Positions 1,708 through 23,527 of a stretch of DNA of 24,000 bases are shown here, piece by piece. The DNA comes from Streptomycetaceae bacterium (GTDB lineage: Bacteria; Actinomycetota; Actinomycetes; Streptomycetales; Streptomycetaceae): the NCBI GenBank assembly GCA_019243445.1, contig JAFAUH010000302.1:1-24000 (forward strand). The letters are read 5' to 3'. The position numbers and the translations under genes are program-made. Every line of letters starts with the position of its first letter. The stretch's first letter is position 1. A model generated the notes under the pieces. That model had not been told where the DNA came from, did not search any database, and saw only the letters and a list, made by a program, of their open reading frames with translations.

Positions 1708-1747
1708 GCTTCTTCGTTTCTTCACCTCTTCGTTCCTTCGCCGCTTT

Positions 1748-2437: not shown

Positions 2438-2607
2438 CAGTCATTCCCCTCTGAAACGGTCTAGCCCCCTCTAAAACGGGCTGGTCCCCTTTTACCACCA
2501 TGCCCGGACAGACGTGCGATGGCTACTCCAGTACCACCCCAGTTACCTGGTTGCAGCAAAATCCGACCGACATCGGAATACTCGCTCCCCAAGTCCCAAG
2601 CCTCAGT

Positions 2608-2663
2608 TCCCAGGTCACAGCTCCCAGGTCACAGCTCCCAGGTCACAGGTCACAGCTCCCAGA
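2608..2663. repeat. Intergenic 14-bp tandem repeat (tcccaggtcacagc), about 3.5 units
   Basis: Perfect units at 2608-2621 and 2622-2635. Truncated or variant units at 2636-2648, 2649-2656 and 2657-2663. It lies 3' of the reductase stop (2706) and 170-225 bp upstream of the lipoprotein start (2437). Confidence 0.9.
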
Positions 2664-2705
2664 TCGTTAACGCGCAGGCGGTCGCTCGGGCGCTTGCCCT
2701 CACGC

Positions 2706-3998: not shown

Positions 3999-4139
3999 GG
4001 TGCCTCCTTGTTCGCCTCCGCCCGCGGTGGGCTCTCTCGGGGCGTCAGGCGGGATGCTGGCGAGGGCAGATGCTGTTCTTCTGCTGATGTCTTCTGCTGA
4101 TGCTGAGTACGGTCGAGTCTATGGGCAAGGCCCGCTCGT

Positions 4140-4841
4140 TCAGCGGTGGATGCCCCGATGAAGTGCGACGACGCCGCCGGTCAGGTTGCGCCAAGCGACA
4201 CTCGACCAGCCCGCCTGCTGCATACGGGTGGCGAGGCCGGGCTGATCGGGCCAGGCACGAATGGACTCTGCGAGGTAGACATACGCATCGGGGTTGCTGC
4301 TCACGGCTGTGGCCACCGGCGGCAGCGCACGCATCAGGTATTCGGTGTAGAGGGTGCGGAACAGCTGCCACGTCGGGTGGCTGAATTCGCAGATCACGAT
4401 CCGGCCACCGAGCCGCGTCACCCGCAGCATCTCGGCGAGCGCGGCGCCGGTGTCGCGGACATTGCGCAGACCGAAGGAGATGGTGACGGCGTCAAAGGCG
4501 CCATCCGTGAACGGCAGCTTCATCGCATCGCCCGCGGTCAGCGACAGCCCCGGGTGCCGCTTCTTGCCCTCGCGCAGCATGCCGAGCGAGAAGTCACACG
4601 GCACGACGTGGGCGCCCGCTGCCGCGAAGGGGAGGGAAGATGTGCCCGTACCGGCAGCAAGATCGAGCACCCGCTCGCCGGGGCGTGCGCCGACGGCGGC
4701 GGCGACCGCCTTGCGCCACAGCCGCGCCTGGCCCAGTGACAACACGTCATTGGTCAGGTCGTAGCGGGCCGCGACGCCATCGAACATCGCGGCGACTTCA
4801 GACGGCTGCTTCTCCATGGAGGCTCGGGTCACGGTTCTCAT
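4140..4841 (-). CDS. menG: Demethylmenaquinone methyltransferase (UbiE/MenG family)
   Basis: [25 protein letters not shown] followed by the SAM motif [12 protein letters not shown] and ISFGLRNV, classic UbiE/MenG signatures. The start could instead be GTG at 4832 (VTRAS...). Confidence 0.9.
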
Positions 4842-4926
4842 TCTTCACATCCGCGGCGCGCGGCCACGCGCAGGGGGCCACGCGCAGGAGGTCATGCGCA
4901 GGAGGTCATACAGCTTGCGGGGTGGC

Positions 4927-6126
4927 TCACTCCGCATCGATGAGCTTGAGCTCGGGGTGGGCGGTTCCGCCCTCAATCGCGGTCGAGGACAGGTGCGACA
5001 CGACGTGCTTGTCGACCGGGTCGTTGGCGGGGTCGTCGTGCACGACCAAATGTTCGTAGGTGGTCGTGCGCTGCGCCGGCACTCGCTCCGCCGTACGGAT
5101 CAAATGGATCAGCTCCATCAGGTTGGAGCGGTGCTTGGCGCCGGCCGAGGAGACCACGTTCTCCTCCAGCATCACCGACCCGAGGTCATCGGCCCCGTAG
5201 TGCAGCGACAGCTGTCCGGCCTCTTTGCCGACGGTGAGCCAGGAGCCTTGGATATGCGCCACGTTGTCGAGGAAGATCCGAGCAATCGCGATCATTCGCA
5301 AGTATTCGAAGATCGTCGCTTGCGTTTGGCCGCGCAGATGATTGTTTTCCGGCTGATAGGTGTACGGGATGAACGCACGAAAGCCGCCTGTGCGGTCCTG
5401 CACATCTCGGATCATCCGAAGATGTTCGATTCTCTCGGCATTGGTCTCACCCGTGCCCATCAGCATCGTCGACGTCGATTCCACCCCGAGCCGGTGCGCC
5501 ATCTCCATGATCTCCAGCCATCGCTCGCCGGACTCCTTCAGCGGCGCGATCGCCTTGCGCGGCCGCTCCGGCAGCAGCTCGGCGCCCGCGCCTGCGAACG
5601 AGTCGAGACCTGCGGCATGAATGCGCCGGATCGCCTCCTCGACGCTCACTCCCGAAACCTTCGCCATGTGCTCTACCTCGGACGCCCCGAGCGAGTGGAT
5701 CACCAGCTGCGGGAATTGCTTCTTGATCGCAGCGAAATGCTTCTCGTAGTACTCGACCCCGAAGTCCGGGTGGTGACCGCCCTGGAACATGATCTGCGTA
5801 CCGCCGAGCTGTACCGTCTCGGCGCAACGGCGCAGGATGTCGTCGAGATCGCGGGTCCAGCCCTTGTCGCTTTTCGGCGGTGCGTAGAAGGCACAGAACT
5901 TACACGCCGTCACGCACACATTGGTGTAGTTGATGTTGCGCTCAATGATGTACGTGGCGATGTGCTCGATGCCCGCGTAACGGCGGCGGCGGATCGCATC
6001 GGCCGCCTGTCCGAGCGCGTGCAGCGGCGCGTTCCGGTACAGCTCGAGCGCTTCCTCCGGCGTGACCCGCTCCCCTGCAACGGCATGGTCGAGTACGGAC
6101 TGCAGGCCGACTTTGGCGGGCACCAC
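4927..6126 (-). CDS. mqnC: Cyclic dehypoxanthinyl futalosine synthase (radical SAM, futalosine pathway)
   Basis: Radical-SAM cluster motif NYTNVCVTACKFCAFY, plus GGTQIMFQGGHHPD and TMLMGTGET blocks typical of MqnC. The ORF is open to 6318. GTG at 6126 (or 6123) is preceded by AAGGA and gives 399 aa. The upstream extension is Arg-rich and lacks any recognisable domain signature, so it is not called. Confidence 0.85.
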   Translation of the reverse strand: MVPAKVGLQSVLDHAVAGERVTPEEALELYRNAPLHALGQAADAIRRRRYAGIEHIATYIIERNINYTNVCVTACKFCAFYAPPKSDKGWTRDLDDILRRCAETVQLGGTQIMFQGGHHPDFGVEYYEKHFAAIKKQFPQLVIHSLGASEVEHMAKVSGVSVEEAIRRIHAAGLDSFAGAGAELLPERPRKAIAPLKESGERWLEIMEMAHRLGVESTSTMLMGTGETNAERIEHLRMIRDVQDRTGGFRAFIPYTYQPENNHLRGQTQATIFEYLRMIAIARIFLDNVAHIQGSWLTVGKEAGQLSLHYGADDLGSVMLEENVVSSAGAKHRSNLMELIHLIRTAERVPAQRTTTYEHLVVHDDPANDPVDKHVVSHLSSTAIEGGTAHPELKLIDAE

Positions 6127-6295
6127 GGCGTCCTTTCGGGAGGGGCAGGCGGCGGACGTGCCCAGACTACGCCAGGCAATTCGTGAGCGACGCATGCGAG
6201 CAAGCGGAGTGGCCGGCCGCAGCGCCGCCGTTCGAGGTGCGCGCCTCCGGCACGACAGGCCGTCCGCAAAGCGCGAGAGCAGACGGAGAAGCGAA

Positions 6296-6340
6296 CAAAA
6301 AACCCACGAGCGACGCACGTCGGACGCTGTCGCTTCGTGG
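6296..6340 (-). terminator. Intrinsic terminator of the toxin/immunity/NTPase operon
   Basis: On the minus strand, immediately after the TGA at 6343-6341: CCACGAAGCGAC...GUCGCUCGUGG stem (one bulged A) followed by GUUUUUUG. Confidence 0.8.
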
Positions 6341-8581
6341 TCACCGCAGGATGCGCTGATCGTACTGCCAGCCGGTGATGCCCTCGTTCCCCGCGGCGAT
6401 CAGCATCCCGTCCCGGGTGAGGGCCAGCGCTGAGACGTCGTGGTGGGGATAGATGGTGATGCGATTGCCCAACCCCGGCCGCAGCAGATGGACGACGCGA
6501 TCGGCCCATGCCACAGCCATCACGGGGCCCGTAGCCGTCTCGGTGAGGGCCAGTGCCTTGGGCACCGACTCGCGGCGCGTCAGCGGCCTCGGCAACGGGG
6601 CACGGTCGCAATCCCACAACCGAATGGTTCCGTCGGTGGCTGCGGCGACGACCATCGTCACGCCGTTCCCGACACGCAGACAGCACACACCGGTGAGCGG
6701 CGCATCCGCAAGCCGCTCGACCCTGCTGAACGGGGCCTGGCCGAGAGCAGATCGGTCGAGAGCAGACTGGCTGAAAGCAAACAGGTGGGCGTTGCCCGTC
6801 ATATCCCCCACCACCAGGAGTCCGGCCTGCGGATCGCTGCCCACGCAGGTGGCGTTCACCCGGTCCGCCGGATCGACCGCATTGAACGGCGCCAGGATGT
6901 CCGCAGTCTGCGGCTGCTCTGCGCCACCGACCAGGTGGAGTACGCCGTCGTCACCGAGTACGACAATTCCGCCGTCCGCGAGTGGGGAAATGCCAGTGGC
7001 ACCGTTGGCCGGGGTGTTCACAGCTCGTCCGGAGATGGTCCCGTCGGCAGCGTTGATGATGTGGAGCTGACCTATCGGATCAGCTGCGATTACCTGAGTG
7101 GGGTGTGGTGTTGACGACGTCCCCGGGCTCAATGCGCCGATCGCACCCGGCCAATGCGCATCCGTCCCGCCGTTGTTCGGTATGAGTGAGGTGTGACGTA
7201 GGAAGGACCAGCGTGCGACAGCTGAGGCCTTCTCTGCCATAGGTGCGAGGAGTTCAGCCAGTCGCGGTGCGCTGGACAATGCGACCGCATGCAGCACGGA
7301 GGCACGTTTCTCCGCGTCGGGCAGTCCGCGATCGAGGATGGGCGCGGCCGGGTACCAGGTTGACCGCAGCGTCGGCGGAGTCTTCACCTTCGGATCGTCG
7401 AGGGCTTGGGTGATGGCAGCGGGGGATCCGTGGATGAGAAAGCCCGGATCGCTCATCAGGTGACTCAGGGAACGAGCATCCGGTGCGTGTCCGATGATGT
7501 GATCCAGTACATAGCGTGGGGCGTGCTCCCAGTCGAGCTGGCCTCTCGTGCTTTTGGGCACCAGGTCGAGAAGTGATGCGAAGAGCACCTGTGGAGTCGA
7601 GTGTTCATCAATCGCCTCGCTCTCCCGCCGTGCAATTTGGATCAGCTGAGGGAGCGGCAGCTTGAATTCCTGTACCTGTGGGGCAAGTTGCGCAGCGGCG
7701 GCGTCCACGGCGGCCCTGGCCGCGGCCTCGGAATCGGACGGGTGCAGTCCAGCGTGCAGCAGCCGCCATGTGGCGATGCCCATCTCCCCACGTGCCCATG
7801 CCAATGTCCGCAACGCGCTTCGCGCAGCTGGTTCCAGGCGACTCCACCACGCCGCGCAGATACTTGTGCGCGTATCTGGGCGCGTATCTGGGCGCGCGAT
7901 GCCTTGATCACTGGTGAGCCCTGCTGCGAGCCGCCCCAGAACGGGATGCGGGAAGACCTCTGCCGCGGGGACGGTGGGGCTGCCTCCCGTCAAGCGCGTA
8001 TACCAGGCGGCGTACTCCTCCTCGTCGGTCATCGCTGGATCGTCGAGGTCGATCGTCCGTACGGGGAAGTCGAAGCCGCTGCTGGTGAGGTCGCGTACCT
8101 CCGCAATCACGCGGACCCACGGCAGCGCCAGAAGTGGTTCCAGCACTTCGGTCACCAACAGGGAGCCAGGCCATCGGCCTCGAGTGCTCACCTGGTGCAG
8201 ATCTGGTATCGCGATCAGCAACGGGCGTTTGTCAGCCGTGACATGGATGATCAGATCGGACACTGATGCTGGGCCGTAGCCCAGTTGAAATGACAGCTCC
8301 CATACCAGCGGCGCCAGCGAAGCACCGGCCGCAGGAACCAGTGCGTTGACCTGGTCCGCCGCGTGTCCGGTCGCATGTCCGGAGGTGTGTCCGGCCGCGT
8401 GTCCGGTCGCGCCGCATGCGAACCAGGCGATGAGATGGCTCTTCCCCATCCCTGCCGAACCACCGACCAGGCATACCCGTTCCGCATCGGTGTCCGCTGC
8501 CCACTCAAGCAGCGCCCAGCCCGCCGGGGCACGGCCTGCCTCCAGCGGTGGCCGGTCGTCGGCGGGCAACGCGTTGTTCAC
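6341..8581 (-). CDS. STAND-type P-loop NTPase with C-terminal WD40-like beta-propeller
   Basis: Walker A is VCLVGGSAGMGKSHL and a Walker-B-like strand is RPLLIAIPDLH. A long helical middle region follows. The C-terminal third has repeated strand blades (QLHIINAADGTISG, GIVVLGDDGVLHLVG, LLVVGDMTGNAHLF, MVVAAATDGTIRLWD, VMAVAWADRVVHLL, MLIAAGNEGITGWQY). GTG start with GGAGGAG upstream. Confidence 0.75.
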   Translation of the reverse strand: MNNALPADDRPPLEAGRAPAGWALLEWAADTDAERVCLVGGSAGMGKSHLIAWFACGATGHAAGHTSGHATGHAADQVNALVPAAGASLAPLVWELSFQLGYGPASVSDLIIHVTADKRPLLIAIPDLHQVSTRGRWPGSLLVTEVLEPLLALPWVRVIAEVRDLTSSGFDFPVRTIDLDDPAMTDEEEYAAWYTRLTGGSPTVPAAEVFPHPVLGRLAAGLTSDQGIARPDTRPDTRTSICAAWWSRLEPAARSALRTLAWARGEMGIATWRLLHAGLHPSDSEAAARAAVDAAAAQLAPQVQEFKLPLPQLIQIARRESEAIDEHSTPQVLFASLLDLVPKSTRGQLDWEHAPRYVLDHIIGHAPDARSLSHLMSDPGFLIHGSPAAITQALDDPKVKTPPTLRSTWYPAAPILDRGLPDAEKRASVLHAVALSSAPRLAELLAPMAEKASAVARWSFLRHTSLIPNNGGTDAHWPGAIGALSPGTSSTPHPTQVIAADPIGQLHIINAADGTISGRAVNTPANGATGISPLADGGIVVLGDDGVLHLVGGAEQPQTADILAPFNAVDPADRVNATCVGSDPQAGLLVVGDMTGNAHLFAFSQSALDRSALGQAPFSRVERLADAPLTGVCCLRVGNGVTMVVAAATDGTIRLWDCDRAPLPRPLTRRESVPKALALTETATGPVMAVAWADRVVHLLRPGLGNRITIYPHHDVSALALTRDGMLIAAGNEGITGWQYDQRILR

Positions 8582-8623
8582 GTCTTCTCCTCCGCGGTAG
8601 GGCGTGACGTCAGTAGCCGGACG

Positions 8624-9184
8624 TCAGTAGCCGTACAGAATGCGTTCCACAATCTGGTACCAGTAGGACTCGGGGTCGGCGAAGGCAGTCGAATCCGCAG
8701 CACGGAGTTCGACCACGAGGTTGTCCGTCGCCTTCTTACGGGTCTCCAGATTCTTCGCCTCGATATATTCTCGATCACGGAAGAACGCGGTAATGAACAG
8801 AGTGAACAGATCGACGCTGCTGTTGAGGAAACCTGGCGCTTCCTCTCCGTCAACCATCACCCTGACCTCACCGGTGCTACCGTCCAGGATCACGGCGTCG
8901 TCGCCGTAACAAAATCCCATGGCGACCCAACTGTCCGCGGTCCGAGGCAGATCATCGATCTCGTAGATATCAGGACGCTCCGAGCGAAGATCCGGTAGTC
9001 CGGAGGCCACCGTGTCCACGGTCTGATAGATGAAGTCGGATACATCCGGAACCCCGACTTCGGCAAGAAAGCGGGCTGTGGCCGTGTGAGTGACGGCGGG
9101 ATTCAGCAGTTCCGCAGGAACGGTGGCGACATGGGCAGGGCCGAATGCCGCTTCCAGCTCACTGCGCGAGATCGCGAAGCTCAT
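8624..9184 (-). CDS. SUKH-4-like immunity protein (stand-alone)
   Basis: 186 aa. It is clearly paralogous to the N-terminal roughly 180 aa of the next gene. Compare FLAEVGVPDV / LLVECGIPRQV, SWVAMGFCYGDDAVILDGSTGEVR / SWLCLGRDQGAQLCLDPSGKVR, NSSVDLFTLFITAF / NGSLDAFLESLIAL and PESYWYQIVERI / PDSWWSRVVEDI. Size, pattern and adjacency to toxin deaminases fit the SUKH-4 immunity family as I recall it. GAGGAG RBS 5 nt upstream of the ATG. Confidence 0.6.
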   Translation of the reverse strand: MSFAISRSELEAAFGPAHVATVPAELLNPAVTHTATARFLAEVGVPDVSDFIYQTVDTVASGLPDLRSERPDIYEIDDLPRTADSWVAMGFCYGDDAVILDGSTGEVRVMVDGEEAPGFLNSSVDLFTLFITAFFRDREYIEAKNLETRKKATDNLVVELRAADSTAFADPESYWYQIVERILYGY

Positions 9185-9256
9185 CGGACTCCTCGGTGGT
9201 GCGGTGCGCGGGGCTGTCGTGTGCGATCCTGTGCGGTCGTTGCGAGGGTGACGGGT

Positions 9257-10105
9257 TCATTTCACCGCGGCCTGCCGCAGGAGGGCGAGGAAGCTCGCTT
9301 CTCGGGACTGTGCAGTCTGCCCGTAACCAAAGGAATGGGTGAATTCTGCATGCGGGAATTCTCTTGCCATCCATACAGTGCAGTAGTGTCCGGGCATGAA
9401 ACAAGGTTCCAGCTCGGTGTGCACCTTCTTCACCTGAGCGGGAGTGACGCCGGCTTCCCGTAGACCGTTCCAGATCCGCTCTTCCGGATGCAGGCACATG
9501 CCGCCCGGTTCGCTCACGATCTGCTTCTTCCCTTCAGCGTCGGTGAACTCGAAGGCGGCAAAGGAGGCATGCGAGCTGGTGTGCCGGATGTCCTCGACCA
9601 CTCGCGACCACCAGGAGTCGGGCGACTGCACCGCCCCTTGTTCGATGACCGCGAGCCGCCGCAGCAGGGTACGGATGTGCGTTGCTCTTTCCGGTACGTT
9701 CCGGGTAGCACCGATCAGGGCGAGCGCTTCGTCCAACGCGATGAGCGATTCAAGGAAGGCGTCCAGGCTCCCGTTGACGAGCGCCCCGGGATCACCGGAC
9801 GCATCGAATTCGGCTCGCACCTTCCCTGACGGGTCCAGGCACAGTTGCGCTCCCTGGTCCCTCCCGAGGCAGAGCCAAGATGCCTTTCCGCCGGTGTCAT
9901 CCGTGTCCGCCGTCCCGTGATAGGCACCCAACCGGAGGGAGTCGCTCTCCGACGACAGAAAATAAGGACCGACCTGCCGAGGTATTCCACATTCGACAAG
10001 AAGAGGAATTCGTCCGGCATCCGGACCGATATTTCCCACCATGAATCGCCGAATACCGGACGAACCGAAGCGCGCCACGATTCTTGCTCGAAGGTCGTCA
10101 GACAT
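9257..10105 (-). CDS. SUKH-4-like domain fused to a C-terminal toxin-type (CDA-fold) deaminase domain
   Basis: The N-terminal 180 aa are homologous to the 8624-9184 product. The C-terminal roughly 90 aa carry zinc-deaminase motifs HPE (CLHPEERIW) and PCx6C (ELEPCFMPGHYCTVWM). Its tail REFPHAEFTHSFGYG parallels the upstream deaminase tail KYFPGTDVSHSFIYG. Confidence 0.65.
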   Translation of the reverse strand: MSDDLRARIVARFGSSGIRRFMVGNIGPDAGRIPLLVECGIPRQVGPYFLSSESDSLRLGAYHGTADTDDTGGKASWLCLGRDQGAQLCLDPSGKVRAEFDASGDPGALVNGSLDAFLESLIALDEALALIGATRNVPERATHIRTLLRRLAVIEQGAVQSPDSWWSRVVEDIRHTSSHASFAAFEFTDAEGKKQIVSEPGGMCLHPEERIWNGLREAGVTPAQVKKVHTELEPCFMPGHYCTVWMAREFPHAEFTHSFGYGQTAQSREASFLALLRQAAVK

Positions 10106-10143
10106 GCTTCATATCCTACATCCTCGCGGCACACCTATGGAGA

Positions 10144-10920
10144 TCACTTGAACAGGTCTTTCAGGTAGCTTGCATGAGCCTCGTTCCCCACCGTCTCATC
10201 CTCCTTCTCCGGGCCGTAGATGAAGGAGTGAGAAACATCTGTCCCCGGGAAATACTTCGCGAGCCACGCGGCACACTTCGGACTGCGCCGCTGACACGGG
10301 GCTCTTTCACTGTAGGCCGCAACGACATCACCGGTCAGATTGCCATTCTCCTTATTGGCCAGGAATGGCACTCCGGCGTACTGCTCGGAGTGCGAACCGT
10401 ACGACTTGCTCCGGCCTACCAGAATAAATTCGCCGTCTTTTCCTTTGTAGTGGAACGCGGCGTAATTATTCGCGCCTTCATCCCCCATGGCGCCCCGGGC
10501 CTGCTGGGTGGCCCTCGACAGCTCCGTCGTCCCTGGAGCAACTTCCTCGGAGTTCACCATCGGCCATTCCTTGCCGGGGGATTTGGGACCGAGGAGATAC
10601 TCTCCGGGTTTCTTTCCGAGGGTTTTGTTCTCGTCATCCAGGATATTACGGATCCCGGACGTGTCATGGAGTGCGACTTCGGTCAGTTCGTTTTCCCCGA
10701 CCTTCATGACCTTGCCCTCGTGGTCGACCATGTACACGGGGACTCTGTCCGCTATGTCTTCCTCGACCTTTTCGAAATGAGTGGCGGCATCGCGGGCCAT
10801 GGTGCCGATGCGGTCGTGGGCGGCGGCAAGCGCCCGGGGTATCTTCTCGCTGATGTGCCCGAGGATTTCGACGGTGGGTTTGACTATTTTCTCAACTATC
10901 TCCGCCATACCGTCTTTCAA
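10144..10920 (-). CDS. Toxin-type nucleic acid/nucleotide deaminase (CDA fold; SCP1.201-like or YwqJ-like clade unresolved), possibly the C-terminal half of a split polymorphic toxin
   Basis: HSE (GSHSEQYAG) and PCx6C (SERAPCQRRSPKCAAWL) are spaced 32 residues apart. The preceding strands AAFHYKGKDGEFILVGRS fit a deaminase core. The only start candidates are TTG at 10920, which overlaps the upstream stop by 4 nt, or ATG at 10908. The N-terminal 140 aa look like a linker rather than a domain. Confidence 0.65.
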   Translation of the reverse strand: MKDGMAEIVEKIVKPTVEILGHISEKIPRALAAAHDRIGTMARDAATHFEKVEEDIADRVPVYMVDHEGKVMKVGENELTEVALHDTSGIRNILDDENKTLGKKPGEYLLGPKSPGKEWPMVNSEEVAPGTTELSRATQQARGAMGDEGANNYAAFHYKGKDGEFILVGRSKSYGSHSEQYAGVPFLANKENGNLTGDVVAAYSERAPCQRRSPKCAAWLAKYFPGTDVSHSFIYGPEKEDETVGNEAHASYLKDLFK

Positions 10921-11642
10921 CCCCCCGTGGTGAAGGTCAGCGCTCCGACTTTATTGCTGAAATCTCGGCCCCCGTTGATGTTGGCATCGGCTTCACGCTT
11001 GATCATTTCTCCGTGGGTACGTATGGCCGCGGTATCGAGCTTGAGAGCGGGTACCTGACCTCCGATGCTCAGATGGGCGACCTCGGCGAAGAGCAGCCTC
11101 TGCACTGACTGGTCTATCCGCTCCATGATCGGTCCGATGGTGGAGTTCACCAGGGCGCCGACCACCTCGGATTCGAAGCGCTGCAGGATGGCGTTGATGA
11201 TACGATTCTGCGCCTCGATGAAAATGGGTTCCGCGGCCTCCGCCAGGCCCGCAGTGGCCACCGCGGCCACCTGATCGGCAGCGAACTCCGCTGCCGCTAT
11301 GCCGAGTTGGACGATAACCTCGCCCTTCATCCCCTCTACCCCGATGGCCGCCACATCAAGACCGTCAGCCAGCAGCCGGCACACCTCGATCAGATCTTTC
11401 ATATGTCCGGAAGACTGATCGGCCCACACCTGAGCCAGCGCGGTGTACGACTGTGCCGTGTAGGCCCGTTGCAACTCTCCGTTGACGATGCCGTGGGTGC
11501 GTCCGTGCGACTGCTCGCACTCTTCGGCATAGGAACGCAGGTGCTTGGCTGCCTCGCGAAGCTGGTCCTCGTCGATCTCTGGCCAGTTGAAGCCCAGTAT
11601 CCCCATGATCTCAACAAGCCAGTGCGGCAAGTTGATAGCCAC
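10917..11642 (-). CDS. WXG100/LXG-like helical N-terminal trafficking module of a T7SS-type polymorphic toxin (no toxin domain in this ORF)
   Basis: The N-terminus MAINLPHWLVEIMGILGFNWPEIDEDQLREAAKHLRSYAEE...ALAQVWADQSSG resembles the WP-x-x-DED-x-L helical hairpin found at the N-termini of actinobacterial secreted toxins (from memory). The remainder is Ala-rich helical. GTG start with GGGGGAGG 6 nt upstream. It ends ...FTTGG-stop on a G6 run. Confidence 0.55.
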   Translation of the reverse strand: MAINLPHWLVEIMGILGFNWPEIDEDQLREAAKHLRSYAEECEQSHGRTHGIVNGELQRAYTAQSYTALAQVWADQSSGHMKDLIEVCRLLADGLDVAAIGVEGMKGEVIVQLGIAAAEFAADQVAAVATAGLAEAAEPIFIEAQNRIINAILQRFESEVVGALVNSTIGPIMERIDQSVQRLLFAEVAHLSIGGQVPALKLDTAAIRTHGEMIKREADANINGGRDFSNKVGALTFTTGG

Positions 11643-12108: not shown

Positions 12109-13722
12109 GTGGACCAGACGCCGGAATGGGGCCGGAGTGATAGAGGTGGCGCCTGGAATCCGGGTGGGGACAGAAGCTTCGGCGCAGGCGCCGGGGTAGG
12201 TGGTCCTGGCAGGACCGGTGGTGATGCATGGGCCGGACAGGCCGACTACGGCGCGGGGTCGTCGGGTGGCGGCAGTTACGCCGGGCTCGCTGCTGAGGCG
12301 GACGCGCTCTCCGGCCGTCTGCCCGAGGGCTTTCAACTGCTGCGACGGGCCGGAAGGGGCCGGCACAGCAGCGTGCTGCTGTGCCGCGAGGACGCGACCG
12401 GGCAAGAGGTCGCGCTGAAAATACTCAACTTGACGGTGGAGGACGAGGGCCTGCGGCTGGCCACTCACTCCGAGCTGCTCTCCGCGGGGGCCGCGGCGAA
12501 ACACCCGTGCTCGGTGCTGGTCGAGGACGCCGGCTTTACGCCCGACAATCGACCATATCTCGTCGAGCAGTTCTGCCAAGGCGGAAATGCTCAGTCAAAG
12601 CTGAATAATTCGGGCACCTTCTCGGTGGACGAGGTCATCATCATCGGGATACGGCTGGCGCTGTCGCTGAGTTCGGCGCACCGCCGCGGCGTCCTGCACT
12701 TGGACGTACGACCCGCGAACGTGCTCTTCGACGGGGCCGGGGACGCACTGCTCGCCGATCACGGCATCGCCCGTATCATCCAGCGGTCCGCACCGCAGCT
12801 CGGGGCCGTTTTCGACCCGATGTACTCCGCGCGCGAGATGTTCGGCTGGGAGAAGCCGGGGCCGTCCGCCGATATCTACGGCCTCGGGGCGACGCTCTAT
12901 GCGCTGCTCAACGGCCTTCCCGCGTATGCCGAGGCGGGCAGCACCAGTTGGTCGGCACTCTACAACGAGGTGCTGCGTGGCGAATTCCCACCGCCGAACC
13001 GGCACGATGTGCCACCGCAGCTGTTCGACCTCATCAGCCGCATGATGTCGGTGAACCCGGAGGGCCGCCCTCCGCTCACCGAAGTGCACCGGGTGCTGCG
13101 GATGATGATGCCTGCCGGGTATGGCGTCCGGGTACCGGCGCTCGACCCGGAGCCGGAGCCCGAGCCGATGCTGCCAGGCTGGGATCCGGCCGAAGACATC
13201 ACGCCGGAGGAGCAGGCGGAAGCCGAACGGATAGGCGCTGAGGCCGAGGCGGAGGCGCAGCGGCGTCGCCGCATGTGGATCGCTTCGGGCGCGGTCCTGG
13301 TCCTTTTCGTTGCGGGGGCCACGGCGATCACCGTGTACCACGAGAAGAACAAGGCGAAGGAGAAGGCGTCCGCCAGCCCCGCGCTGCCCAAGGGGCCGGT
13401 GCCCGCGAGCGAACAGGCTGAGTTCATGCCGCAGGACGTGATGGTGACAAAAGTCAACGGGACCGTGCAAGTGGCGTGGAAGGCCCCGAAGAACATGAAA
13501 TCGGTGGTTTCCTACGCAGTGCAGGTGGCTCTCCCTGCCGCCAATGGTCAAAAGAGGGGCGGTCAGTTGCAGACGACGACACTGGCCAATCCCGAGGTGA
13601 TCTTCAGCGCGCCCGAGGACGTACAGTCCGACGACTGCTACGTCGCCGCGTCGGTGGTGAAGGCTGCCAATGGCGAGCTGCAGTATGCGGCTGCGCGACC
13701 TGTGTGCAATACGGCGGGATGA
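12109..13722 (+). CDS. Membrane-anchored Ser/Thr protein kinase-like protein (Hanks fold, single TM, extracytoplasmic beta-rich domain)
   Basis: Gly-rich disordered N-terminus. Kinase core has EVALKIL (Lys), HRRGVLHLDVRPANVLF (catalytic loop, HLD instead of HRD), LLADHGIA (DHG instead of DFG) and SAREMF...SADIYGLGATLYALLNG. TM segment MWIASGAVLVLFVAGATAITVY. C-terminal roughly 130 aa with FN3-like strand pattern (VTKVNGTVQVAWKAP...SYAVQV). GTG start after GGGAGGG. Confidence 0.8.
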   Translation: MDQTPEWGRSDRGGAWNPGGDRSFGAGAGVGGPGRTGGDAWAGQADYGAGSSGGGSYAGLAAEADALSGRLPEGFQLLRRAGRGRHSSVLLCREDATGQEVALKILNLTVEDEGLRLATHSELLSAGAAAKHPCSVLVEDAGFTPDNRPYLVEQFCQGGNAQSKLNNSGTFSVDEVIIIGIRLALSLSSAHRRGVLHLDVRPANVLFDGAGDALLADHGIARIIQRSAPQLGAVFDPMYSAREMFGWEKPGPSADIYGLGATLYALLNGLPAYAEAGSTSWSALYNEVLRGEFPPPNRHDVPPQLFDLISRMMSVNPEGRPPLTEVHRVLRMMMPAGYGVRVPALDPEPEPEPMLPGWDPAEDITPEEQAEAERIGAEAEAEAQRRRRMWIASGAVLVLFVAGATAITVYHEKNKAKEKASASPALPKGPVPASEQAEFMPQDVMVTKVNGTVQVAWKAPKNMKSVVSYAVQVALPAANGQKRGGQLQTTTLANPEVIFSAPEDVQSDDCYVAASVVKAANGELQYAAARPVCNTAG

Positions 13723-13740
13723 CCCCGTAAACGGCACGAC

Positions 13741-13775
13741 GGTGCGCCGCCGAGAGTGATACCTCGGGGCGCACC
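13741..13775. terminator. Hairpin between convergent kinase and WXG100 genes
   Basis: ggtgcgccgccgag / ctcggggcgcacc inverted repeat (one bulge) with an 8-nt loop, between the stops at 13722 (+) and 13799 (-). Confidence 0.55.
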
Positions 13776-13798
13776 GCTACGCAATGCTGAACTGCTGC

Positions 13799-14095
13799 TC
13801 AGTGGCCAATGCCGTGCGCCAGGCTCTCGTCCGCCTGACGGAAGGCGTCGGCGGCCTGGTGCAGGAACTTCGCCATGCCGGTGAGGCCGTCGATGGTCTG
13901 CGTCGCGCCCTTGTTGAACTCGGTGTACGACTGCTCGAACGCCTTCGAGGAGCGGTCGGTCACGTAACCGTCGTTCACCAACTGGTTGACGAAGCTCTGG
14001 AGCTGGTGCAGCTTGTCGGTGATCTCCTGCTGCCCGCTGGTCAGCTTGTTCGCCGCGTCCTGCATCTGGTCATAAGTGACGTTTACGTTGGCCAT
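13799..14095 (-). CDS. WXG100-family (EsxA-like) small helical secretion substrate, Trp-less variant
   Basis: 98 aa with a predicted helix-turn-helix layout. Start MANVNVTYDQMQDAANKLTSGQQEI and mid-turn ...NDGYVTDRSSKAFEQSYTEF align by eye to EsxA ...ANWEGQAFSRFEEQF. It is divergently adjacent to an EssC/EccC-like ATPase. Confidence 0.7.
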   Translation of the reverse strand: MANVNVTYDQMQDAANKLTSGQQEITDKLHQLQSFVNQLVNDGYVTDRSSKAFEQSYTEFNKGATQTIDGLTGMAKFLHQAADAFRQADESLAHGIGH

Positions 14096-14160
14096 ATCGG
14101 CAACCCCTCATTTCACGCCTCAGGGCCTGTCCCCCGTGGCTCCTGGCTACTTCGTTTCTA

Positions 14161-14181
14161 GCAGGTTGCATGACAACCTGC
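14161..14181. promoter_or_regulatory. Perfect 8-5-8 inverted repeat in the divergent WXG100/essC-like promoter region (candidate operator)
   Basis: gcaggttg-catga-caacctgc, located 66 bp from the WXG100 start and 291 bp upstream of the ATPase start. Confidence 0.25.
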
Positions 14182-14471
14182 CCGGCTTTGCCAGTTGTTC
14201 AGCTTACGGGCAGGGACGCGGGAGTGCACCCCCCGGTTCCCGGCAGACGTCCGCGAACCAACTACCGCCCCCACCATACAGTCAGCACATATTCACGTTT
14301 TCTGCACGTTCCCCCATATCTCCCCCCACCTTCGCCTGGGCGGCTGTCGTACCCGTCAGGCATCATGGTTCCCATCACAAGCCGAGCGGCTTCGCGCAGA
14401 GAACAGGAACATGCGCAGGCGCCGTGCAGGCACCGCGCATTGCACCGACAACATCGCCCAGGGGGACGGCC

Positions 14472-17400
14472 GTGGAACTGCAGCTCAGCGTCATTGACCC
14501 AGTCCGTGCGGACCGTTCGGACATGCTGGTCGACGCCGATCCCGCAGCACCGGTCGGCGCGCTCGCTGTCGAGATCGCCCGGCAGCTCGGGATGCCCGAC
14601 GACGGGCAGGGCCCGCCCAGGCTGCATATCAACGGCTTCATAGTCGACCCCGAGGTCAGCCTCGACGCCTCGCCCGTGCGTGACGGCGCGCTGGTCTCGA
14701 TAGCCGCGCCCGCCCCGCTTCAGGCACCCGACGCGCAAGGCACCGTCGAGGTACGGGTCGTGGGCGGTCCGGATGCCGGCGGTGTGTACCGGCTGGGGCC
14801 CGGCATGGCCGTCGTCGGCAGCGGGACGGAGGCGTGGATCCGGCTCGCCGACGCGCAGTTGCCGCAGTCCGCGGTCGAGGTGGACGTCGCGATTGACGGC
14901 AATGTGACCGTGCGCCCTTCGGCAGGCGCCTCCGTCACCCTCGACGGCGAGCCGCTCACCTCCGCCAAGCCGTGGCGGCGGCGTAGCGTCATCAGCGTCG
15001 GCCAGTCGCTGATCGAGCTGCAGCATCCATCCTTCCCCGACGCCGCGTTGAAGCCTTCCGAAGACGGCACAGGGCTGGATTACAACCGGCCGCCGCGTAT
15101 CACCCCGCCGCCGCGACCGACGAAGTTCAACCTGCCGGCGAAACCCAAGCAGGGCGAGGCACGTCCGCTGCCCTGGCTCATGGCGGCGCTGCCGCTGGTC
15201 GGCTCCCTCGTGATGTTCATGGCGATGCGGCCGCATAATCCGATGTATCTGTCCATGGCGCTGCTCAGTCCCCTCACCATGGTGGGCAACTACCTCAACG
15301 ACCGTAAGCGCGGCAAGAAGTCGTTCCGCCACACCCTCGCCGACTACGAGAAGCAAAAGGACTCCATTGATCGGCAGGCGCGCAAGGCGGTCGCCGCCGA
15401 GACGGGCGCGGCGCGCGAGCTGTGCCCCGACCCGGCGCAGGTACTGATCACCGCGACCGGCCCTGGTATGCGACTGTGGGAGCGTCGGCGCGCCGACGCC
15501 GACTACGGGCTGCTGCGGGTCGGCACGGGCACCCTGCCGTCGGAGGTCGAAGTCTCCGACCCCGCACAGGAGGAGCACCGGCGTATCTCGCACCGCAAAC
15601 TGCTGGACGCGCCGGTGACAGTGCCGATGACCGTCCACAGCGTGCTGGGCATTGCGGGACGCGGTGAGGTGCCGCGCATGATCGGCCGCTGGCTGATAGC
15701 CCAGGCCGCCGTGTTGCACTCTCCGGCGGATTTGTCCGTCTGCGTGCTCACCGACCCGAGCGGACGGCACAGTTGGGAATGGGTGCGCTGGCTGCCGCAT
15801 GCCCGGGCCCGGGAGGGCCAGTCGGCCTTGGCTTTGATCGGTACGGACGCCGACAGTGTGGCGCGTCGCATCAGTGAGCTGCTCGCCCAGTTGACTGCCC
15901 GTCAGGATGCGGCGCGTGAGGCGGGTATGCAGGCCAACCAGGTCTGGAGCGGCCCCACTACTCTCGTTGTCCTCGACGGATCGCGACGGCTGCGCGCGCT
16001 GCCGGGCCTGACGCAGATCCTGCGCGACGGCCCGAAGGTCGGCATCCACCTGATCTGCCTCGACGCCGACCGCCGGCTGCTGCCTGAGGAGTGCAAGGGG
16101 GTGGTCGAGGAGGATTACTACGGGCTGCTGTCGGTCTCGATCGCCGGTCAGGAGCCGGTGACCCAGGTGCGCCCCGACTGTGTCTCGCCCGAGTGGTGTG
16201 AGCAGGTCGCCCGCTCTATCGCGCCGATACGTGACATCAGTGGTGACGACGGCGCGGCGCTGCCCGACGCCTGCCGTCTGCTGGACGTCATCGATCTGGA
16301 GCCGCCGACGACAGCCGGGATCACGGCACGCTGGTCGCTGAGCGGGCGCAGCACAAGCGCCGTGGTCGGTGCCTCCTTCGACGGGCCGTTCGCCATCGAC
16401 TTGGTGCGGGACGGGCCGCACGGCCTGGTCGCCGGCACCACTGGTTCCGGTAAGTCGGAGCTGCTGCAGACCATTGTCGCCTCGCTCGCCGTAGCCAACC
16501 GGCCGGACGCGATGACATTCGTCCTTGTCGACTACAAGGGCGGTTCGGCGTTCAAGGACTGTGTGAAACTGCCGCACACCGTCGGCATGGTCACCGACCT
16601 CGACACCCACTTGGTGGAGCGAGCGCTGGAGTCGCTCGGCGCCGAACTGCGCCGCCGTGAGCACATCCTCGCCGCGGCCGGTACGAAGGACCTCGAGGAT
16701 TACATCATTGCGATGCGCACCAACTCGTCGCTCGCACCGATGCCGCGCTTGCTCATCGTGATCGACGAGTTCGCGTCCATGGCGCGGGAACTGCCGGACT
16801 TCGTCACAGGTCTGGTCAATATCGCGCAGCGAGGCCGTTCGCTGGGCATTCATCTGATCCTGGCCACGCAGCGGCCCTCCGGTGTCGTCTCGCCCGAGAT
16901 CCGCGCCAACACCAATCTGCGGATCGCATTGCGCGTGACGGACGCCGCCGAGTCGTCCGACGTCATCGACGCGCCCGACGCCGGGCACATCGCCAAGTCC
17001 ACGCCGGGGCGGGCGTATGTGCGCCTTGGCGCCTCCTCGCTCCTGCCGTTCCAGTCCGGCCGGGTCGGCGGGCGGCGGCCGGGCCAGGTCGCGTCGAAGG
17101 CTCCTGCGCCGTTCACGGTCCCGGTCGGGTGGGAGGCACTGGGCAAGCCGGCGCCCGAGCGCCCGCAGGGGCCGAAGTCCAACGACGACGATCTGCTCAC
17201 CGACCTCGCGGTCCTGGTCGATGCGATCATCGGTGCCAATGAGCAGTTGGGGCTACCGCCGCAGCACAGCCCGTGGCTGCCCGCGCTCCCGGACTCCACC
17301 ACGCTGGACGATCTGGAGCCGCCGCGCTATCTGTCGCGGGACGGTTTGCTGCCGGCCCCGTTCGCCGTCGAGGACCTGCCATCGCAGCAGGCGCGCCGCA

Positions 17401-18961: not shown

Positions 18962-19858
<897 letters not shown>

Positions 19859-20143
19859 CTAGACCCAGCACTTCTGGATCTCGTGCCGCCCCCGGACGGT
19901 GCCGACCGCGTCGTGCGTCGCGGGACGACGGTGACACCGACGGCGTCGAGACGACACGAGAGCACGGGAGGATCTTTGAACCCTTCCACACCGAGATCCC
20001 CCGTGCTACGCTCGTTCGCAAGTTGCAGTTTGGTTTCCCTTGCAGTACAAAGCCTGCGGAGCATGTGACGCCGCAGGCTTTTGTTTTTCAGACTTCATCG
20101 CAGGTTCTGGAGCTAGGGCAACCCTTGGCCCAAGGAGGGCTTT

Positions 20144-20347
20144 ATGGCTACCGGAACCGTTAAGTGGTTCAACGCTGAAAAGGGCTTCGGCTTCATCGCC
20201 CAGGACGGCGGCGGACCCGACGTCTTCGTTCACTACTCCGCGATCAACGCCTCTGGCTTCCGCTCCCTCGAGGAGAACCAGTCCGTGACCTTCGACGTCA
20301 CCCAGGGCCCGAAGGGTCCGCAGGCGGAGAACGTCAGCCCGGCGTAA
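20144..20347 (+). CDS. Cold-shock protein (CspA family)
   Basis: [34 protein letters not shown] contains the RNP1 (KGFGFI) and RNP2 (VFVHY) motifs. AAGGAGG RBS. Confidence 0.95.
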
Positions 20348-20385
20348 TTGCGTCATCAATAAAAGTACCCAAGAGAAGTATCCAA

Positions 20386-20421
20386 GGAGCCCCGCGCATG
20401 CGCGGGGCTCCTGCCTTTTTT
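20386..20421 (+). terminator. Intrinsic terminator of the cold-shock gene
   Basis: ggagccccgcgc/gcgcggggctcc palindrome (20386-20411) followed by tgcctttttt (T-run 20416-20421). Confidence 0.85.
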
Positions 20422-20636
20422 GGGCGCCAGACCCAGTCCGGGCGGGCGCCCGACCCAAGCCACGATGACCGACTTTCCGACCAATTCCGATCAACTCCTC
20501 CAAGAGCATGAACAGCTGCACCTGTCCGAGCGATTGAACGTGTCCCACGGCCCGGCTGAGGGCATTCCATGACGTTGCCCGGGCATGCTGGGCAAACCCC
20601 TTCGACACAGGCTTCAATCCAGGAACTGAGGTAACC

Positions 20637-21227
20637 ATGCGCCGCCTAGCCGCAGCAGCGTCCGCAGTCGCCGCGCTTTTCTGCGTCTCCGCCATCCCCG
20701 CCCAGGCCGCACAGGCCGAGCACGTCCCACCGTTCGGCCTCGGCAAGGTCCTCGCCCGCCACGGGGGCATGATCAGATCAGGGCCGGGTGTGAACTACGC
20801 AGTCACCGGACGTCTGCGTAACGGCCAGGTCGTTCCGCTGCTCTGCAGGGCCACCGGGTCGACCTTGCGCGACCACCGTCTGTGGTACAAGCTGAACGAC
20901 CGTCCCGAGATGTGGGCCAACTCCGTCCTCATCGGCCGTATCGGCAAATCTCCGGTCTGGTGCGCGCGCCCCGGAGTCTCGGTCCAGCCGGGTCATCACC
21001 ACAAGAAGCACCACGGCATGAAGCAGCAGGCCCAGCACCTGCTCGCACCGCAGGCCCCGCAGACCTCGCAAATGCCGCAGACCACTGTGAAGTCACAGAA
21101 CACTGAGAACCTGCGGACCAACCAGCGGGAGCTTCAGAAACTGCAGCAGGAACTGATCAACGAGCAAATCCAGCAGCGCCCGATGAGCGCGCCCGGCATG
21201 CACCTCCAAAGCGGCGGCAAGCACTGA
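20637..21227 (+). CDS. Secreted protein with SH3b-like domain and His/Gln-rich tail
   Basis: Signal peptide MRRLAAAASAVAALFCVSAIPAQAAQA. GGMIRSGPGVNYAVTGRLRNGQVVPLLC...LWYKL resembles bacterial SH3 domains. The C-terminus is low complexity (HHHKKHH, Q-rich). Confidence 0.65.
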   Translation: MRRLAAAASAVAALFCVSAIPAQAAQAEHVPPFGLGKVLARHGGMIRSGPGVNYAVTGRLRNGQVVPLLCRATGSTLRDHRLWYKLNDRPEMWANSVLIGRIGKSPVWCARPGVSVQPGHHHKKHHGMKQQAQHLLAPQAPQTSQMPQTTVKSQNTENLRTNQRELQKLQQELINEQIQQRPMSAPGMHLQSGGKH

Positions 21228-21243
21228 CTTCGCGTCACCTTCC

Positions 21244-21283
21244 GTTGAAGGGGCGCCCGGCATCGGCCGGGCGCCCCTTCAAC
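21244..21283. terminator. Bidirectional hairpin terminator
   Basis: Perfect 18-bp inverted repeat gttgaaggggcgcccggc / gccgggcgccccttcaac with a 4-nt loop, between the convergent stops at 21227 (+) and 21344 (-). Confidence 0.8.
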
Positions 21284-21343
21284 GCAATGATGCGTTTCGA
21301 CACAATGATGCGATGCCGCATCACGGCTGATTCCTCCAGCGAA

Positions 21344-21658
21344 TCAGCCGTGTGCGCCACGGGCGGCGTCGTCCGCCTCGTCCTCGACACTCGCCTGATT
21401 GACGAAGGCCTGCCGGGTGCGCTCAACGCGCTGTGAGACCTGCACGGACGCCTCGTCACGGGCGCCACGCAGCAGGACATAGCTGAGCGGAGCGGAGAGG
21501 ACGAGTGCGAGCAACATCACCCACAGGAGATTGGACTTGCCGAGTCCGGCGGGGAGGACCCGCAGGTAGACGAGGCCCCAGATGGCGAGGAAGCACGCGG
21601 CGAAAAGTCCCGCGCGCATCGCGGTGTATCGGAGCATGGGGCTCGGCTTCCAGCTCAC
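21344..21658 (-). CDS. Small two-TM membrane protein (DUF4229-like)
   Basis: MLRYTAMRAGLFAACFLAIWGLVYL and LLWVMLLALVLSAPLSYVLL helices, then an acidic tail. Its position next to mqnE matches Streptomyces synteny as I recall it. Confidence 0.65.
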   Translation of the reverse strand: MSWKPSPMLRYTAMRAGLFAACFLAIWGLVYLRVLPAGLGKSNLLWVMLLALVLSAPLSYVLLRGARDEASVQVSQRVERTRQAFVNQASVEDEADDAARGAHG

Positions 21659-21834
21659 GGCAGTTCCACTCTTTCGTTCCGGTTCGATATCCGCAGGTCA
21701 GGTATACAGGTATACCTCTCCAGTGAAGCATGGAAAGCCAAGGGACGGCCCGCAGGGTCTCCGACAGGGGCGGGGTCCCCCAGGCAGTTCGTATGCCAGA
21801 CGTATGTGCCAGACCTATGTATCAGACACATGCG

Positions 21835-22998: not shown

Positions 22999-23071
22999 GC
23001 CGCCTCCTTCGTTCGCACTGCCCAACCGAGGTTACGCCCCGACTCTGACACTCTGCCGGTCAGCCCGTCGG

Positions 23072-23527
23072 TCACTCCTGCTCGGGCAGCTCGCCGACCC
23101 GGTTCTCCCACTTCGTCGACAACACAACGGTGGTACGGGTACGGGCGACGCCCTTGATGCCGGAGAGCCGTCGGATGGTGTGTTCCAGCCCGTCGACGTC
23201 CGGGACGCGGACCTTGAGCATGAACGAATCGTCACCCGCGATGAACCAGCAGTCCTCGATCTCCTCAAGATCGTTCATCCGCTGGGCCACGTCCTCGTGG
23301 TCGGCGGCATCGCTCAACTGGATGCCGACGAGCGCAGTGGCGCCGAGGCCGAGCGCCGCCGGGTTGACGGTGGCCCGGTAGCCGGTGATAACCCCGGCTT
23401 GCTCCAGCCGGTTGATGCGATCGGTGACGCTGGGGCCGGAAAGTCCGACGAGCCGTCCGAGCTCCGCGTAGGAGGCCCTGCCGTTCTCCCGGAGAGCCTG
23501 GATGAGCTGCTTGTCCACCGCGTCCAT
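23072..23527 (-). CDS. Lrp/AsnC-family transcriptional regulator
   Basis: N-terminal HTH DKQLIQALRENGRASYAELGRLVGLSGPSVTDRINRLEQAGVI plus a C-terminal RAM/AsnC_trans_reg-type domain. Confidence 0.9.
   Translation of the reverse strand: MDAVDKQLIQALRENGRASYAELGRLVGLSGPSVTDRINRLEQAGVITGYRATVNPAALGLGATALVGIQLSDAADHEDVAQRMNDLEEIEDCWFIAGDDSFMLKVRVPDVDGLEHTIRRLSGIKGVARTRTTVVLSTKWENRVGELPEQE

Follow-up and report, generated by a model that had tools for sequence, protein, structure and literature searches.

A kinase-fold membrane protein linked to EssC at a minimal type VII secretion locus of Streptomycetaceae: a candidate non-catalytic adaptor

The kinase-fold protein and its linkage to EssC

This analysis deals with a stretch of 24,000 nucleotides from a Streptomycetaceae bacterium (contig JAFAUH010000302.1, positions 1 to 24,000, here called the window) and with a gene at 12109-13722 on its forward strand. 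The gene codes for a kinase-fold membrane protein and lies close to the gene for an EssC-type ATPase of a type VII secretion system (T7SS). In this bacterial family the kinase-fold gene was accompanied by the EssC gene in every informative locus, its catalytic residues were lost repeatedly, and the forkhead-associated (FHA) domain of the EssC partner has lost the residues for phosphothreonine binding. We give an even chance to the interpretation that the protein serves as an accessory adaptor or docking subunit of a minimal T7SS, which would act mainly without catalysis and in the mode of EssB, the pseudokinase of the Bacillota systems.

The source contig of the window is GC-rich and actinobacterial. 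Codon-position analysis yielded a third-position GC content (GC3) of 0.80 for the open reading frame (ORF) of the kinase-fold protein versus 0.69 for the antisense ORF overlapping it. A Shine-Dalgarno-like GGGAGGG run is located 5 nt upstream of the GTG codon, and the N-terminus MDxTPxWG was kept across the aligned orthologues. The protein of 537 residues was 100% identical to a database protein from a Streptomycetaceae metagenome-assembled genome. An AlphaFold2 (AF2) model built on 39 orthologues (mean pLDDT 82) showed a disordered Gly/Ser-rich N-terminus, the kinase domain, a conserved Pro-rich linker, a long helix and a beta-sandwich of seven strands. The Pfam Pkinase profile (PF00069) matched residues 76-326 with an E-value of 5e-32 and 111.8 bits versus a cut-off of 31.7 bits, and the bilobal kinase fold was modeled with pLDDT values >90 over most of residues 75-333. 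The solved structures nearest by sequence (phmmer against the PDB) were those of Nek1 and of PknB from M. tuberculosis (1e-22). Foldseek placed PknB (6i2p, E 5e-18, TMt 0.79-0.84) on top of the matches of the model, with Nek2 and Aurora also matching at a TMt of 0.8. The ectodomain was termed fn3-like because the Pfam fn3 profile (PF00041) matched in a single orthologue (P0028) and because two Cys residues of the sandwich, C510 and C533, were near-invariant in the orthologue alignment. This pair is compatible with an extracytoplasmic placement of the beta-sandwich. The topology proposed in the first-pass annotation of this DNA, a Hanks-type domain followed by one transmembrane (TM) helix and a beta-rich ectodomain, was thus borne out by Pfam and by the AF2 model.

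A homology search with the kinase-fold protein yielded approximately 65 close relatives (E <1e-70), followed by a sharp fall to generic kinases. All named relatives belonged to Streptomyces, Streptantibioticus, Wenjunlia and similar genera; the family is restricted to Streptomycetaceae. Genomic context was scanned in one genome per species, which yielded 11 loci with true orthologues; another 69 loci, of generic kinases, served as control. Enough downstream sequence was available for the window, L001, L003, L004, L006, L007/L081, L008, L009, L010, L011 and L083. In all 11 of these informative loci an EssC orthologue (54-83% identity) was found downstream on the same strand, compared to none of the 69 control loci, and a kinase-fold gene without EssC was not found among them. 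The distance between both genes varied from 0.75 to 7 kb, with differing genes in between. Pairwise identities of kinase and EssC correlated with r 0.88 (45 pairs), a value that fits co-inheritance and is not proof of functional coupling. The co-occurrence of kinase and EssC-like genes, which the first-pass annotation had wanted to see measured, consequently held in one direction, from the kinase to EssC; in the other direction six EssC loci without the kinase were found, which are considered below.

Some further proteins were observed at these loci. In the S. albus clade (L081 11692-14006; L007, L008, L011) a 672-aa and an 86-aa protein are encoded between kinase and EssC, neither of them with a match in Pfam. 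A second membrane Ser/Thr kinase, canonical in its motifs (GxGxxG, VAVK, HRDVKPSN, DFG, SPE), stands beside the same type of T7SS in Wenjunlia (L083 11666-13330, reverse strand) and in L088 (about 14100-15900, reverse strand), the latter without a window-type kinase. Kinase-less EssC relatives come with a conserved accessory set, consisting of a 445-aa T7SS_signal protein (PF21725), a 208-aa protein and a 94-aa WXG-like protein. This set was found in L083 (13368-16485), L084, L087, L088 and L089, while none of its members was found in the window.

Catalytic residues of the kinase and the phosphothreonine site of its partner

The catalytic set of the window protein is complete, with K104 (VALK), E122 (HSELL), D199 and N204 (both in HLDVRPAN) and D217 (DHG). 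Sequence and alignment to PknB confirmed the retained Lys, Asp, Asn and Asp described earlier, as well as the changes of HRD to HLD (H197-L-D199) and of DFG to DHG (D217-H-G). The Gly-loop had been called degenerate in the first-pass annotation; this was not correct, since G82-R-G84-R-H-S87-S-V89 aligns residue for residue with GFGGMSEV of PknB, both following GxGxxSxV. Further deviations are the replacement of the catalytic-loop Lys by Arg (R201, HLDVR), which is invariant across the family, the change of APE to ARE (A241-R-E243) and the missing GT of the P+1 loop. As far as can be judged from these motifs, the window copy may retain nucleotide binding or residual kinase activity.

A different picture emerged from the 39 orthologues. 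The beta3 Lys was kept in 32 of them (replaced by R or T), the Asp of HxD in 34 (replaced by G, A, N or E), the catalytic-loop Asn in 35 (replaced by S, T or R) and the Asp of DxG in 29 (replaced by G, E or N), while the alphaC Glu was retained by every orthologue. In total, 14/39 orthologues had lost at least one catalytic residue, and in the S. albus clade up to all four variable residues were gone. Mapped on a neighbor-joining tree of the family, these losses correspond to at least 6 independent transitions from an intact to a degraded kinase, with 16 substitutions. Nevertheless, the degraded kinases including those of the S. albus clade are still found beside EssC, and 35 columns elsewhere in the family alignment are invariant; these include structural kinase residues such as the alphaC Glu, the alphaF Asp, the HxD His and the APE Glu. 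Region-wise conservation did not mark the alphaC helix as an unusually conserved interface (0.79 versus 0.92 for the catalytic loop). The residue invariance expected if catalysis were the selected function was not seen. As catalysis was lost repeatedly in genes which are otherwise conserved and stay beside EssC, it is not what holds this kinase family in place. Two family-specific linear motifs were likewise kept in the degraded clade: M-D/N-x-T-P-x-W-G at residues 1-8 (window 12109-12132) and P-G-W-D-P-A-D-D at about residues 354-361 (window 13168-13191), in the stretch that leads from the kinase domain to the TM helix.

The partner protein was identified as an EssC/EccC-type ATPase by its profile scores (TIGR03928 EssC 578 bits, EccCa 417 bits, EccCb 315 bits, FtsK_SpoIIIE 3e-57). 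Three FtsK-type ATPase domains follow its two TM helices. The true start is the GTG at 14472, as in all orthologues, instead of the mechanical ORF start at 14076; the 132 codons in between (14076-14471) are not conserved and overlap the esxA gene and a divergent promoter region. Residues 1-80 form a ubiquitin-like (Ubl) domain of the beta-grasp type in the AF2 model. YukD (PF08817) was their sole Pfam match, with an E-value of 0.019 below the cut-off, accompanied by a weak match to ubiquitin in the PDB. The FHA-bearing ATPase of the first-pass annotation was confirmed insofar as one FHA fold was recognized by Foldseek (OdhI, FhaA and GarA, TMt 0.84-0.90, root-mean-square deviation 1.4-1.7 A). 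This fold is preceded by the Ubl domain and devoid of the residues for phosphothreonine binding. Moreover, the ATPase is not directly adjacent to the kinase as had been stated, because a 98-aa WXG100 gene on the reverse strand (13799-14095) lies in between.

At the positions where GR, SxxH and NG bind phosphothreonine, the window FHA domain carries G116-S117, P131-x-x-A134 and S150-A-G-A153. All 10 Streptomycetaceae EssC orthologues likewise showed residues of the GS, PxxA and AGA type in these alignment columns, as did EssC relatives from Pseudonocardiaceae and Catenulispora. The distant EssC relatives P0141-P0143 keep the canonical GR, SRRH and S(T/S)NG. Homologues found with the EssC N-terminus alone were mostly truncated or frameshifted gene calls, which could still be aligned and used to inspect their genomic context. 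The motifs were additionally aligned to FhaA, and the three-motif criterion was taken from Table S1 of Garrett et al. (2024; PMC11217815). By this criterion the window FHA domain scores "NO" like EssC of the T7SSb and unlike TsdC ("YES"). The first-pass annotation had offered an active kinase whose product is read by the FHA domain of the ATPase, in parallel to the PpkA-Fha1 switch of type VI secretion (T6SS). The T6SS switch needs an FHA domain that binds phosphothreonine. Since the corresponding motifs are replaced in every Streptomycetaceae EssC orthologue and many kinase orthologues are dead (14/39, with the losses described above), a phospho-switch of this kind is unlikely as judged from the sequences. 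The N-terminal Thr of MDxTPxWG was considered as phosphosite for the FHA domain and rejected, as N, K, S or V takes its place in several orthologues and the FHA pocket is gone.

Known secretion systems and alternative explanations

A membrane kinase together with an FHA-bearing ATPase in a T7SS of Actinomycetota is already known, in contrast to the assumption of the first-pass annotation that no such arrangement had been described for actinobacterial T7SS; the T7SSd was published in 2024 (PMC11217815) and the Esr pathway in 2026 (PMC13622651). We compared the window locus with these systems and with the T7SSb. In the cryo-EM structure of the T7SSb core unit the N-lobes (alphaC) of the YukC pseudokinase dimer bind the tip of the second FHA domain (FHA2) of YukB, and the ubiquitin-like YukD clamps the YukB FHA domains (PMC12637312). 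The FHA domains of T7SSb EssC keep GR, SxxH and NG in 0, 0 and 21% of the sequences (PMC11217815). The window protein shares with EssB/YukC the bitopic build of cytoplasmic kinase fold, one TM helix and ectodomain, a partner EssC with an FHA domain blind for phosphothreonine, a YukD-type ubiquitin fold in the system and, at the level of the family, a dispensable catalysis. Docking on the FHA/Ubl region independent of phosphorylation, as in EssB/YukC (PMC9600267; PMC12637312), is likely for the window protein. Clear differences were also found. The ectodomain of EssB/YukC is helical with a beta-swap domain versus the fn3-like sandwich of the window protein, the window EssC carries one FHA domain and a fused Ubl domain versus two FHA domains and a free YukD in the T7SSb, and the window kinase is not universal with its type of EssC, unlike the obligatory core protein EssB. 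A Pfam search yielded no match of the window kinase to YukC (PF10140) at E <= 0.01, and EssB/YukC was missing from the top 50 Foldseek matches of the model, which PknB leads. Hence, of the structural EssB analogue suggested in the first-pass annotation, topology, genomic context and presumed mode of action were supported, while homology or membership in the EssB family was not, in view of the missing PF10140 match, the active kinases as nearest structures, the kept motifs, the different ectodomain and the non-obligatory occurrence.

The T7SSd of Actinomycetota (Olsenella, Bifidobacterium) consists of the WXG100 protein TsdA, the FHA-ATPase TsdC and the PknB-like membrane kinase TsdD, among others (PMC11217815). 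Garrett, Higginson and Palmer (2024) noted an EssB-like topology for TscD, the kinase of the T7SSc. They suggested that phosphorylation could be linked by TsdD to interactions of the TsdC FHA domain, and for the subtypes with a kinase they discussed a parallel to threonine-phosphorylation control of the T6SS, citing the Agrobacterium T6SS (PMC11217815). Like the T7SSd, the window combines in one locus a WXG100 protein, an FHA-bearing FtsK-type ATPase with two TM helices and a PknB-like kinase with one TM helix. However, TsdC keeps GR, SxxH and NG in 100, 98 and 90% of the sequences, whereas the window EssC is without all three, and in TsdD the ectodomain is helical and the active site conserved, compared to the beta-sandwich and the variable active sites of the window kinase and its orthologues. 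The T7SSd furthermore includes TsdH (small, one TM helix) and TsdI (1654 aa, Ig repeats, signal peptide) and no ubiquitin-like protein, while the Ubl domain of the window is fused to the ATPase. TsdH and TsdI were not found among the Pfam-scanned ORFs of the window (GC3-supported ones and a few others of >=100 aa), a scan which a small TsdH-like ORF could escape. Streptomyces is not mentioned in the text of PMC11217815 or in the supplements used here.

The Esr pathway comprises the sensor EsrA, a MoxR and a vWA protein, the transglutaminase EsrD, the kinase EsrE, the phosphatase EsrF and the FHA protein EsrG (Wang et al., 2026, preprint; PMC13622651). It controls Esx, with phosphorylation shown experimentally; many EsrG proteins include FHA-EccC fusions, and its distribution in Streptomycetales is patchy (PMC13622651). 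Relatives of the window locus (L001, L081, L083) resemble it by the order of fn3 protein, bpMoxR, DUF58 protein, transglutaminase and kinase next to esx genes. The window itself shares the fusion of FHA domain and Esx ATPase, with an FHA domain that by sequence is without phosphothreonine-binding residues. In profile scans sensor, MoxR, vWA-like protein and transglutaminase were all missing from the window, and of a pair of kinase and phosphatase like EsrE/EsrF only a kinase was present, with no PP2C-type phosphatase detected in the window, L081 or L083. Among single proteins, PknB is the best match of the window kinase by sequence and structure, with the GxGxxSxV loop and the layout of kinase, TM helix and ectodomain in common. 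It differs by HRD, HRDVK, DFG and SPE versus HLD, HLDVR, DHG and ARE, by the activation-loop Thr missing in the window protein, by its PASTA ectodomain versus an fn3-like one, and by the catalytic residues, which are not conserved in the window orthologues. With the T6SS switch of membrane kinase and FHA protein the window has in common that a membrane kinase is encoded together with an FHA-containing secretion system.

Following the T7SSb model, a minimal T7SS of Streptomycetaceae would comprise a WXG100 protein together with an EssC that bears a fused Ubl domain and one FHA domain, with deaminase toxins of the WXG type encoded nearby. The kinase fold, derived from PknB and held by one TM anchor, would couple to the N-terminal Ubl-FHA part of EssC and need no phosphorylation to do so. 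This would resemble the EssB/YukC pseudokinase, which contacts the phosphothreonine-blind FHA domains of EssC/YukB in the T7SSb, except that here the Ubl domain stands in cis. The fn3-like ectodomain would possibly relay envelope information to EssC, and phosphotransfer would not be required for the coupling role. By analogy to the T7SSb we infer both the physical contact of kinase and EssC and the function as adaptor or transducer.

Several observations weigh against such an adaptor. YukC is without kinase motifs and Gly-loop and cannot bind ATP (PMC9600267), whereas both motifs and loop are retained in the window protein. The catalytic set K/E/D/N/D and the PknB-like Gly-loop are kept by the window copy and 24 other orthologues, and set and GxGxxSxV are intact across the 12-sequence subclade of the window except for P0018. 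No segment of the family is better conserved than the catalytic loop (mean 0.92), and the AF2 model is nearest to active kinases according to Foldseek. Furthermore, the same type of EssC was found in six loci (L084-L089) without such a kinase within the available flanks, and two of these six occupy the same chromosomal position, beside mqnA. Because of these six loci the kinase has to be regarded as accessory and not as a core part of the T7SS. Finally, adjacency and the correlation with EssC could reflect shared descent only, as all orthologues come from one bacterial family.

The intact residues and Gly-loop of the window subclade, the conserved catalytic loop and the active kinases among the nearest structures are also what would be found for an active Ser/Thr kinase of the TsdD/EsrE type, which controls the neighboring T7SS by phosphorylation and senses an envelope cue via its ectodomain. 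A non-RD kinase (HLD) would need no activation-loop phosphorylation. A precedent in Actinomycetota is the control of T7SS by kinase and FHA domain, as published for the T7SSd and for Esr. The kinase would have to act through something other than a canonical FHA pocket, as in all orthologues the sole FHA domain of the locus has lost the Arg, Ser, His and Asn that bind phosphothreonine; it might target itself, the linker of EssC, the WXG100 protein or some other reader. The catalytic losses, at least 6 and independent, with synteny kept, the missing PP2C-type partner at the three loci scanned, and the non-canonical HLD, DHG, ARE and catalytic-loop Arg argue in the opposite direction, and we consider the active kinase possible but doubtful.

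The kinase might alternatively belong to an upstream operon, as part of an Esr-like sensing module or an envelope-maintenance module, with its closeness to the T7SS being an inherited gene order near the mqn genes. In L001, L005-L008, L011, L081 and L083 it directly follows an operon of fn3 protein, bpMoxR, DUF58 protein and TgpA transglutaminase, with an overlap of tgpA and kinase gene of 4 bp in S. albus. This order of sensor, MoxR, vWA-like protein, transglutaminase and kinase mirrors the Esr pathway, and a T7SS of the same type exists without the kinase. However, the first four genes of this order are common without kinase or T7SS, being widespread as the same operon in Streptomyces, Embleya and other actinomycetes (L090, L091). 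Conversely, the window, L003, L004, L009 and L010 have no such operon ahead of the kinase gene, which is still found beside esxA/essC; the sole tgpA-like match of L009 lies downstream of essC and in opposite orientation. As the kinase stays at the T7SS without the operon, and the operon is common without the kinase, the kinase travels with the T7SS and not with the MoxR operon. Together with its EssC neighbor in all 11 loci this makes membership in the operon improbable, and the view that the kinase closes the MoxR-DUF58-TgpA operon was dropped as main explanation, the operon being kinase-less in S. lincolnensis and Embleya. Even less probable, to a degree that we hardly expect it to hold, is an unrelated membrane kinase of housekeeping or phage-defense function (e.g., PD-T4-6-like) located nearby by chance. 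The PADLOC models of the PD-T4-6 and MADS6 kinases matched with E-values of 1e-41 to 1e-36, and many NCBIfam kinase families matched as well, but these matches span the generic kinase domain only and stay far under the curated cut-offs (MAD6, 84 versus 460 bits), and the family has a narrow distribution with strict synteny to EssC. A defense role derived from the PD-T4-6, MADS6 and PglW matches was rejected for the same generic nature of the matches.

Surroundings of the locus and significance for type VII secretion

The coordinates of all features are summarized in Table 1.

Table 1. Features of the kinase-EssC locus and the adjoining cassette in the 24,000-nt window
Feature	Position	Strand	Basis and remarks
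Three genes: XOO_2897-type deaminase (258 aa), SUKH-4+deaminase fusion (282 aa), SUKH-4 protein (186 aa)	8624-10920	-	Pfam PF14440, PF14435
WXG100_2-domain protein, 241 aa	10917-11642	-	PF25547, E 5.6e-12
Kinase-fold bitopic membrane protein gene	12109-13722	+	GTG start, 537 aa, GC3 0.80
Hanks-type kinase domain, residues 76-326	12334-13086	+	Pfam PF00069
Single TM helix W390-Y410, RRRR before it	13276-13338	+	Sequence; within AF2 long helix 366-411
Extracytoplasmic fn3-like beta-sandwich, residues 441-537	13429-13719	+	AF2: seven strands, pLDDT mostly 75-97
Hairpin with 14-bp stem between the convergent kinase and esxA-like genes	13740-13776	.	-35.2 kcal/mol, z -3.44
WXG100 (EsxA-like) gene, 98 aa	13799-14095	-	Pfam WXG100, E 4.7e-18
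EssC/EccC-type T7SS ATPase, 1467 aa	14472-18875	+	Profile matches; start from orthologue N-termini
Ubl domain (YukD/EsaB-like) at the N-terminus of EssC, residues 1-80	14472-14711	+	AF2: beta-beta-alpha-beta-beta-beta
Single FHA-fold domain of EssC, residues 90-186	14739-15029	+	Foldseek, alignments
Two TM helices of EssC	15156-15287	+	Sequence; AF2 helices 234-251, 257-279

Orthologues of the EsxA-like protein (52-67% identical) were found at the same position, between kinase and EssC, in L001, L003, L004, L010 and L083. In place of the expected W-x-G turn the protein apparently reads N41-D42-G43, and an F-x-x-x-D-like motif stands at its end. The hairpin between both convergent genes is probably a bidirectional transcript end; a scan for terminators with consensus T-tract did not pick it up, as it has none. 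EssA, EsaA, EssB/YukC, EccB/D/E and MycP were not found among the window proteins in profile scans.

The space that separates the kinase gene from the mqnC-like gene (4927-6318) upstream of it holds, on the reverse strand (6341-11642), a cassette in the style of polymorphic toxins. The WXG100_2-domain protein heading it is likely a T7SS substrate or targeting partner, and the deaminase toxins and SUKH-4 immunity genes probably provide cargo and immunity for the T7SS. The fusion of SUKH-4 immunity domain and deaminase is unusual. The cassette also holds a STAND-like AAA_16/WD40 protein of 746 aa. It looks inserted, as L003 and L004 are without it at this position and their mqnC-like gene abuts the kinase gene. 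The whole T7SS island lies among menaquinone genes of the futalosine pathway (window 681-6318 and 18962-23988). The flanking genes code for an mqnC-like protein, a UbiE-type methyltransferase, a geranylgeranyl-reductase-like FAD protein, an mqnA-like protein, MqnE and a flavoprotein fragment, and further for an NlpC/P60 protein, a DUF4232 protein and a regulator of the Lrp/AsnC type.

What is new in comparison to the published systems is the variant of the Streptomycetaceae, in which both partners, kinase and FHA domain, are losing the residues of phospho-signaling, and a minimal T7SS of three genes with a Ubl-FHA-EssC fusion. For the question how the channel ATPase of a T7SS assembles and is switched on, two models have been published, scaffolding by EssB in the T7SSb versus kinase/FHA signaling, the latter proposed for the T7SSd and shown for Esr. 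The window locus stands between both, with a kinase fold intact or dead depending on the species, an FHA domain of actinobacterial type blind for phosphothreonine, and a YukD-like domain in cis. The family thus represents a natural mutant series suited to distinguish catalysis from contact as the working mode of kinase-fold EssC partners, and it points to a very small T7SS of kinase-fold protein, WXG100 protein and EssC associated with deaminase toxins in Streptomycetaceae. We tentatively propose, as a possibility we would not yet call probable, that the family is a living intermediate on the way from a signaling pair, made up of a receptor kinase and a phosphothreonine-reading FHA domain on the T7SS ATPase, to a structural pair of pseudokinase and phosphothreonine-blind FHA domain as in EssB-EssC of Bacillota. 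The FHA domain would then be blind already and the kinase decaying lineage by lineage, and the window copy may already serve as a scaffold while it is still competent as a kinase. Were this true, such an intermediate would show the origin of the EssB-type pseudokinases of T7SS and define a minimal T7SS of three genes.

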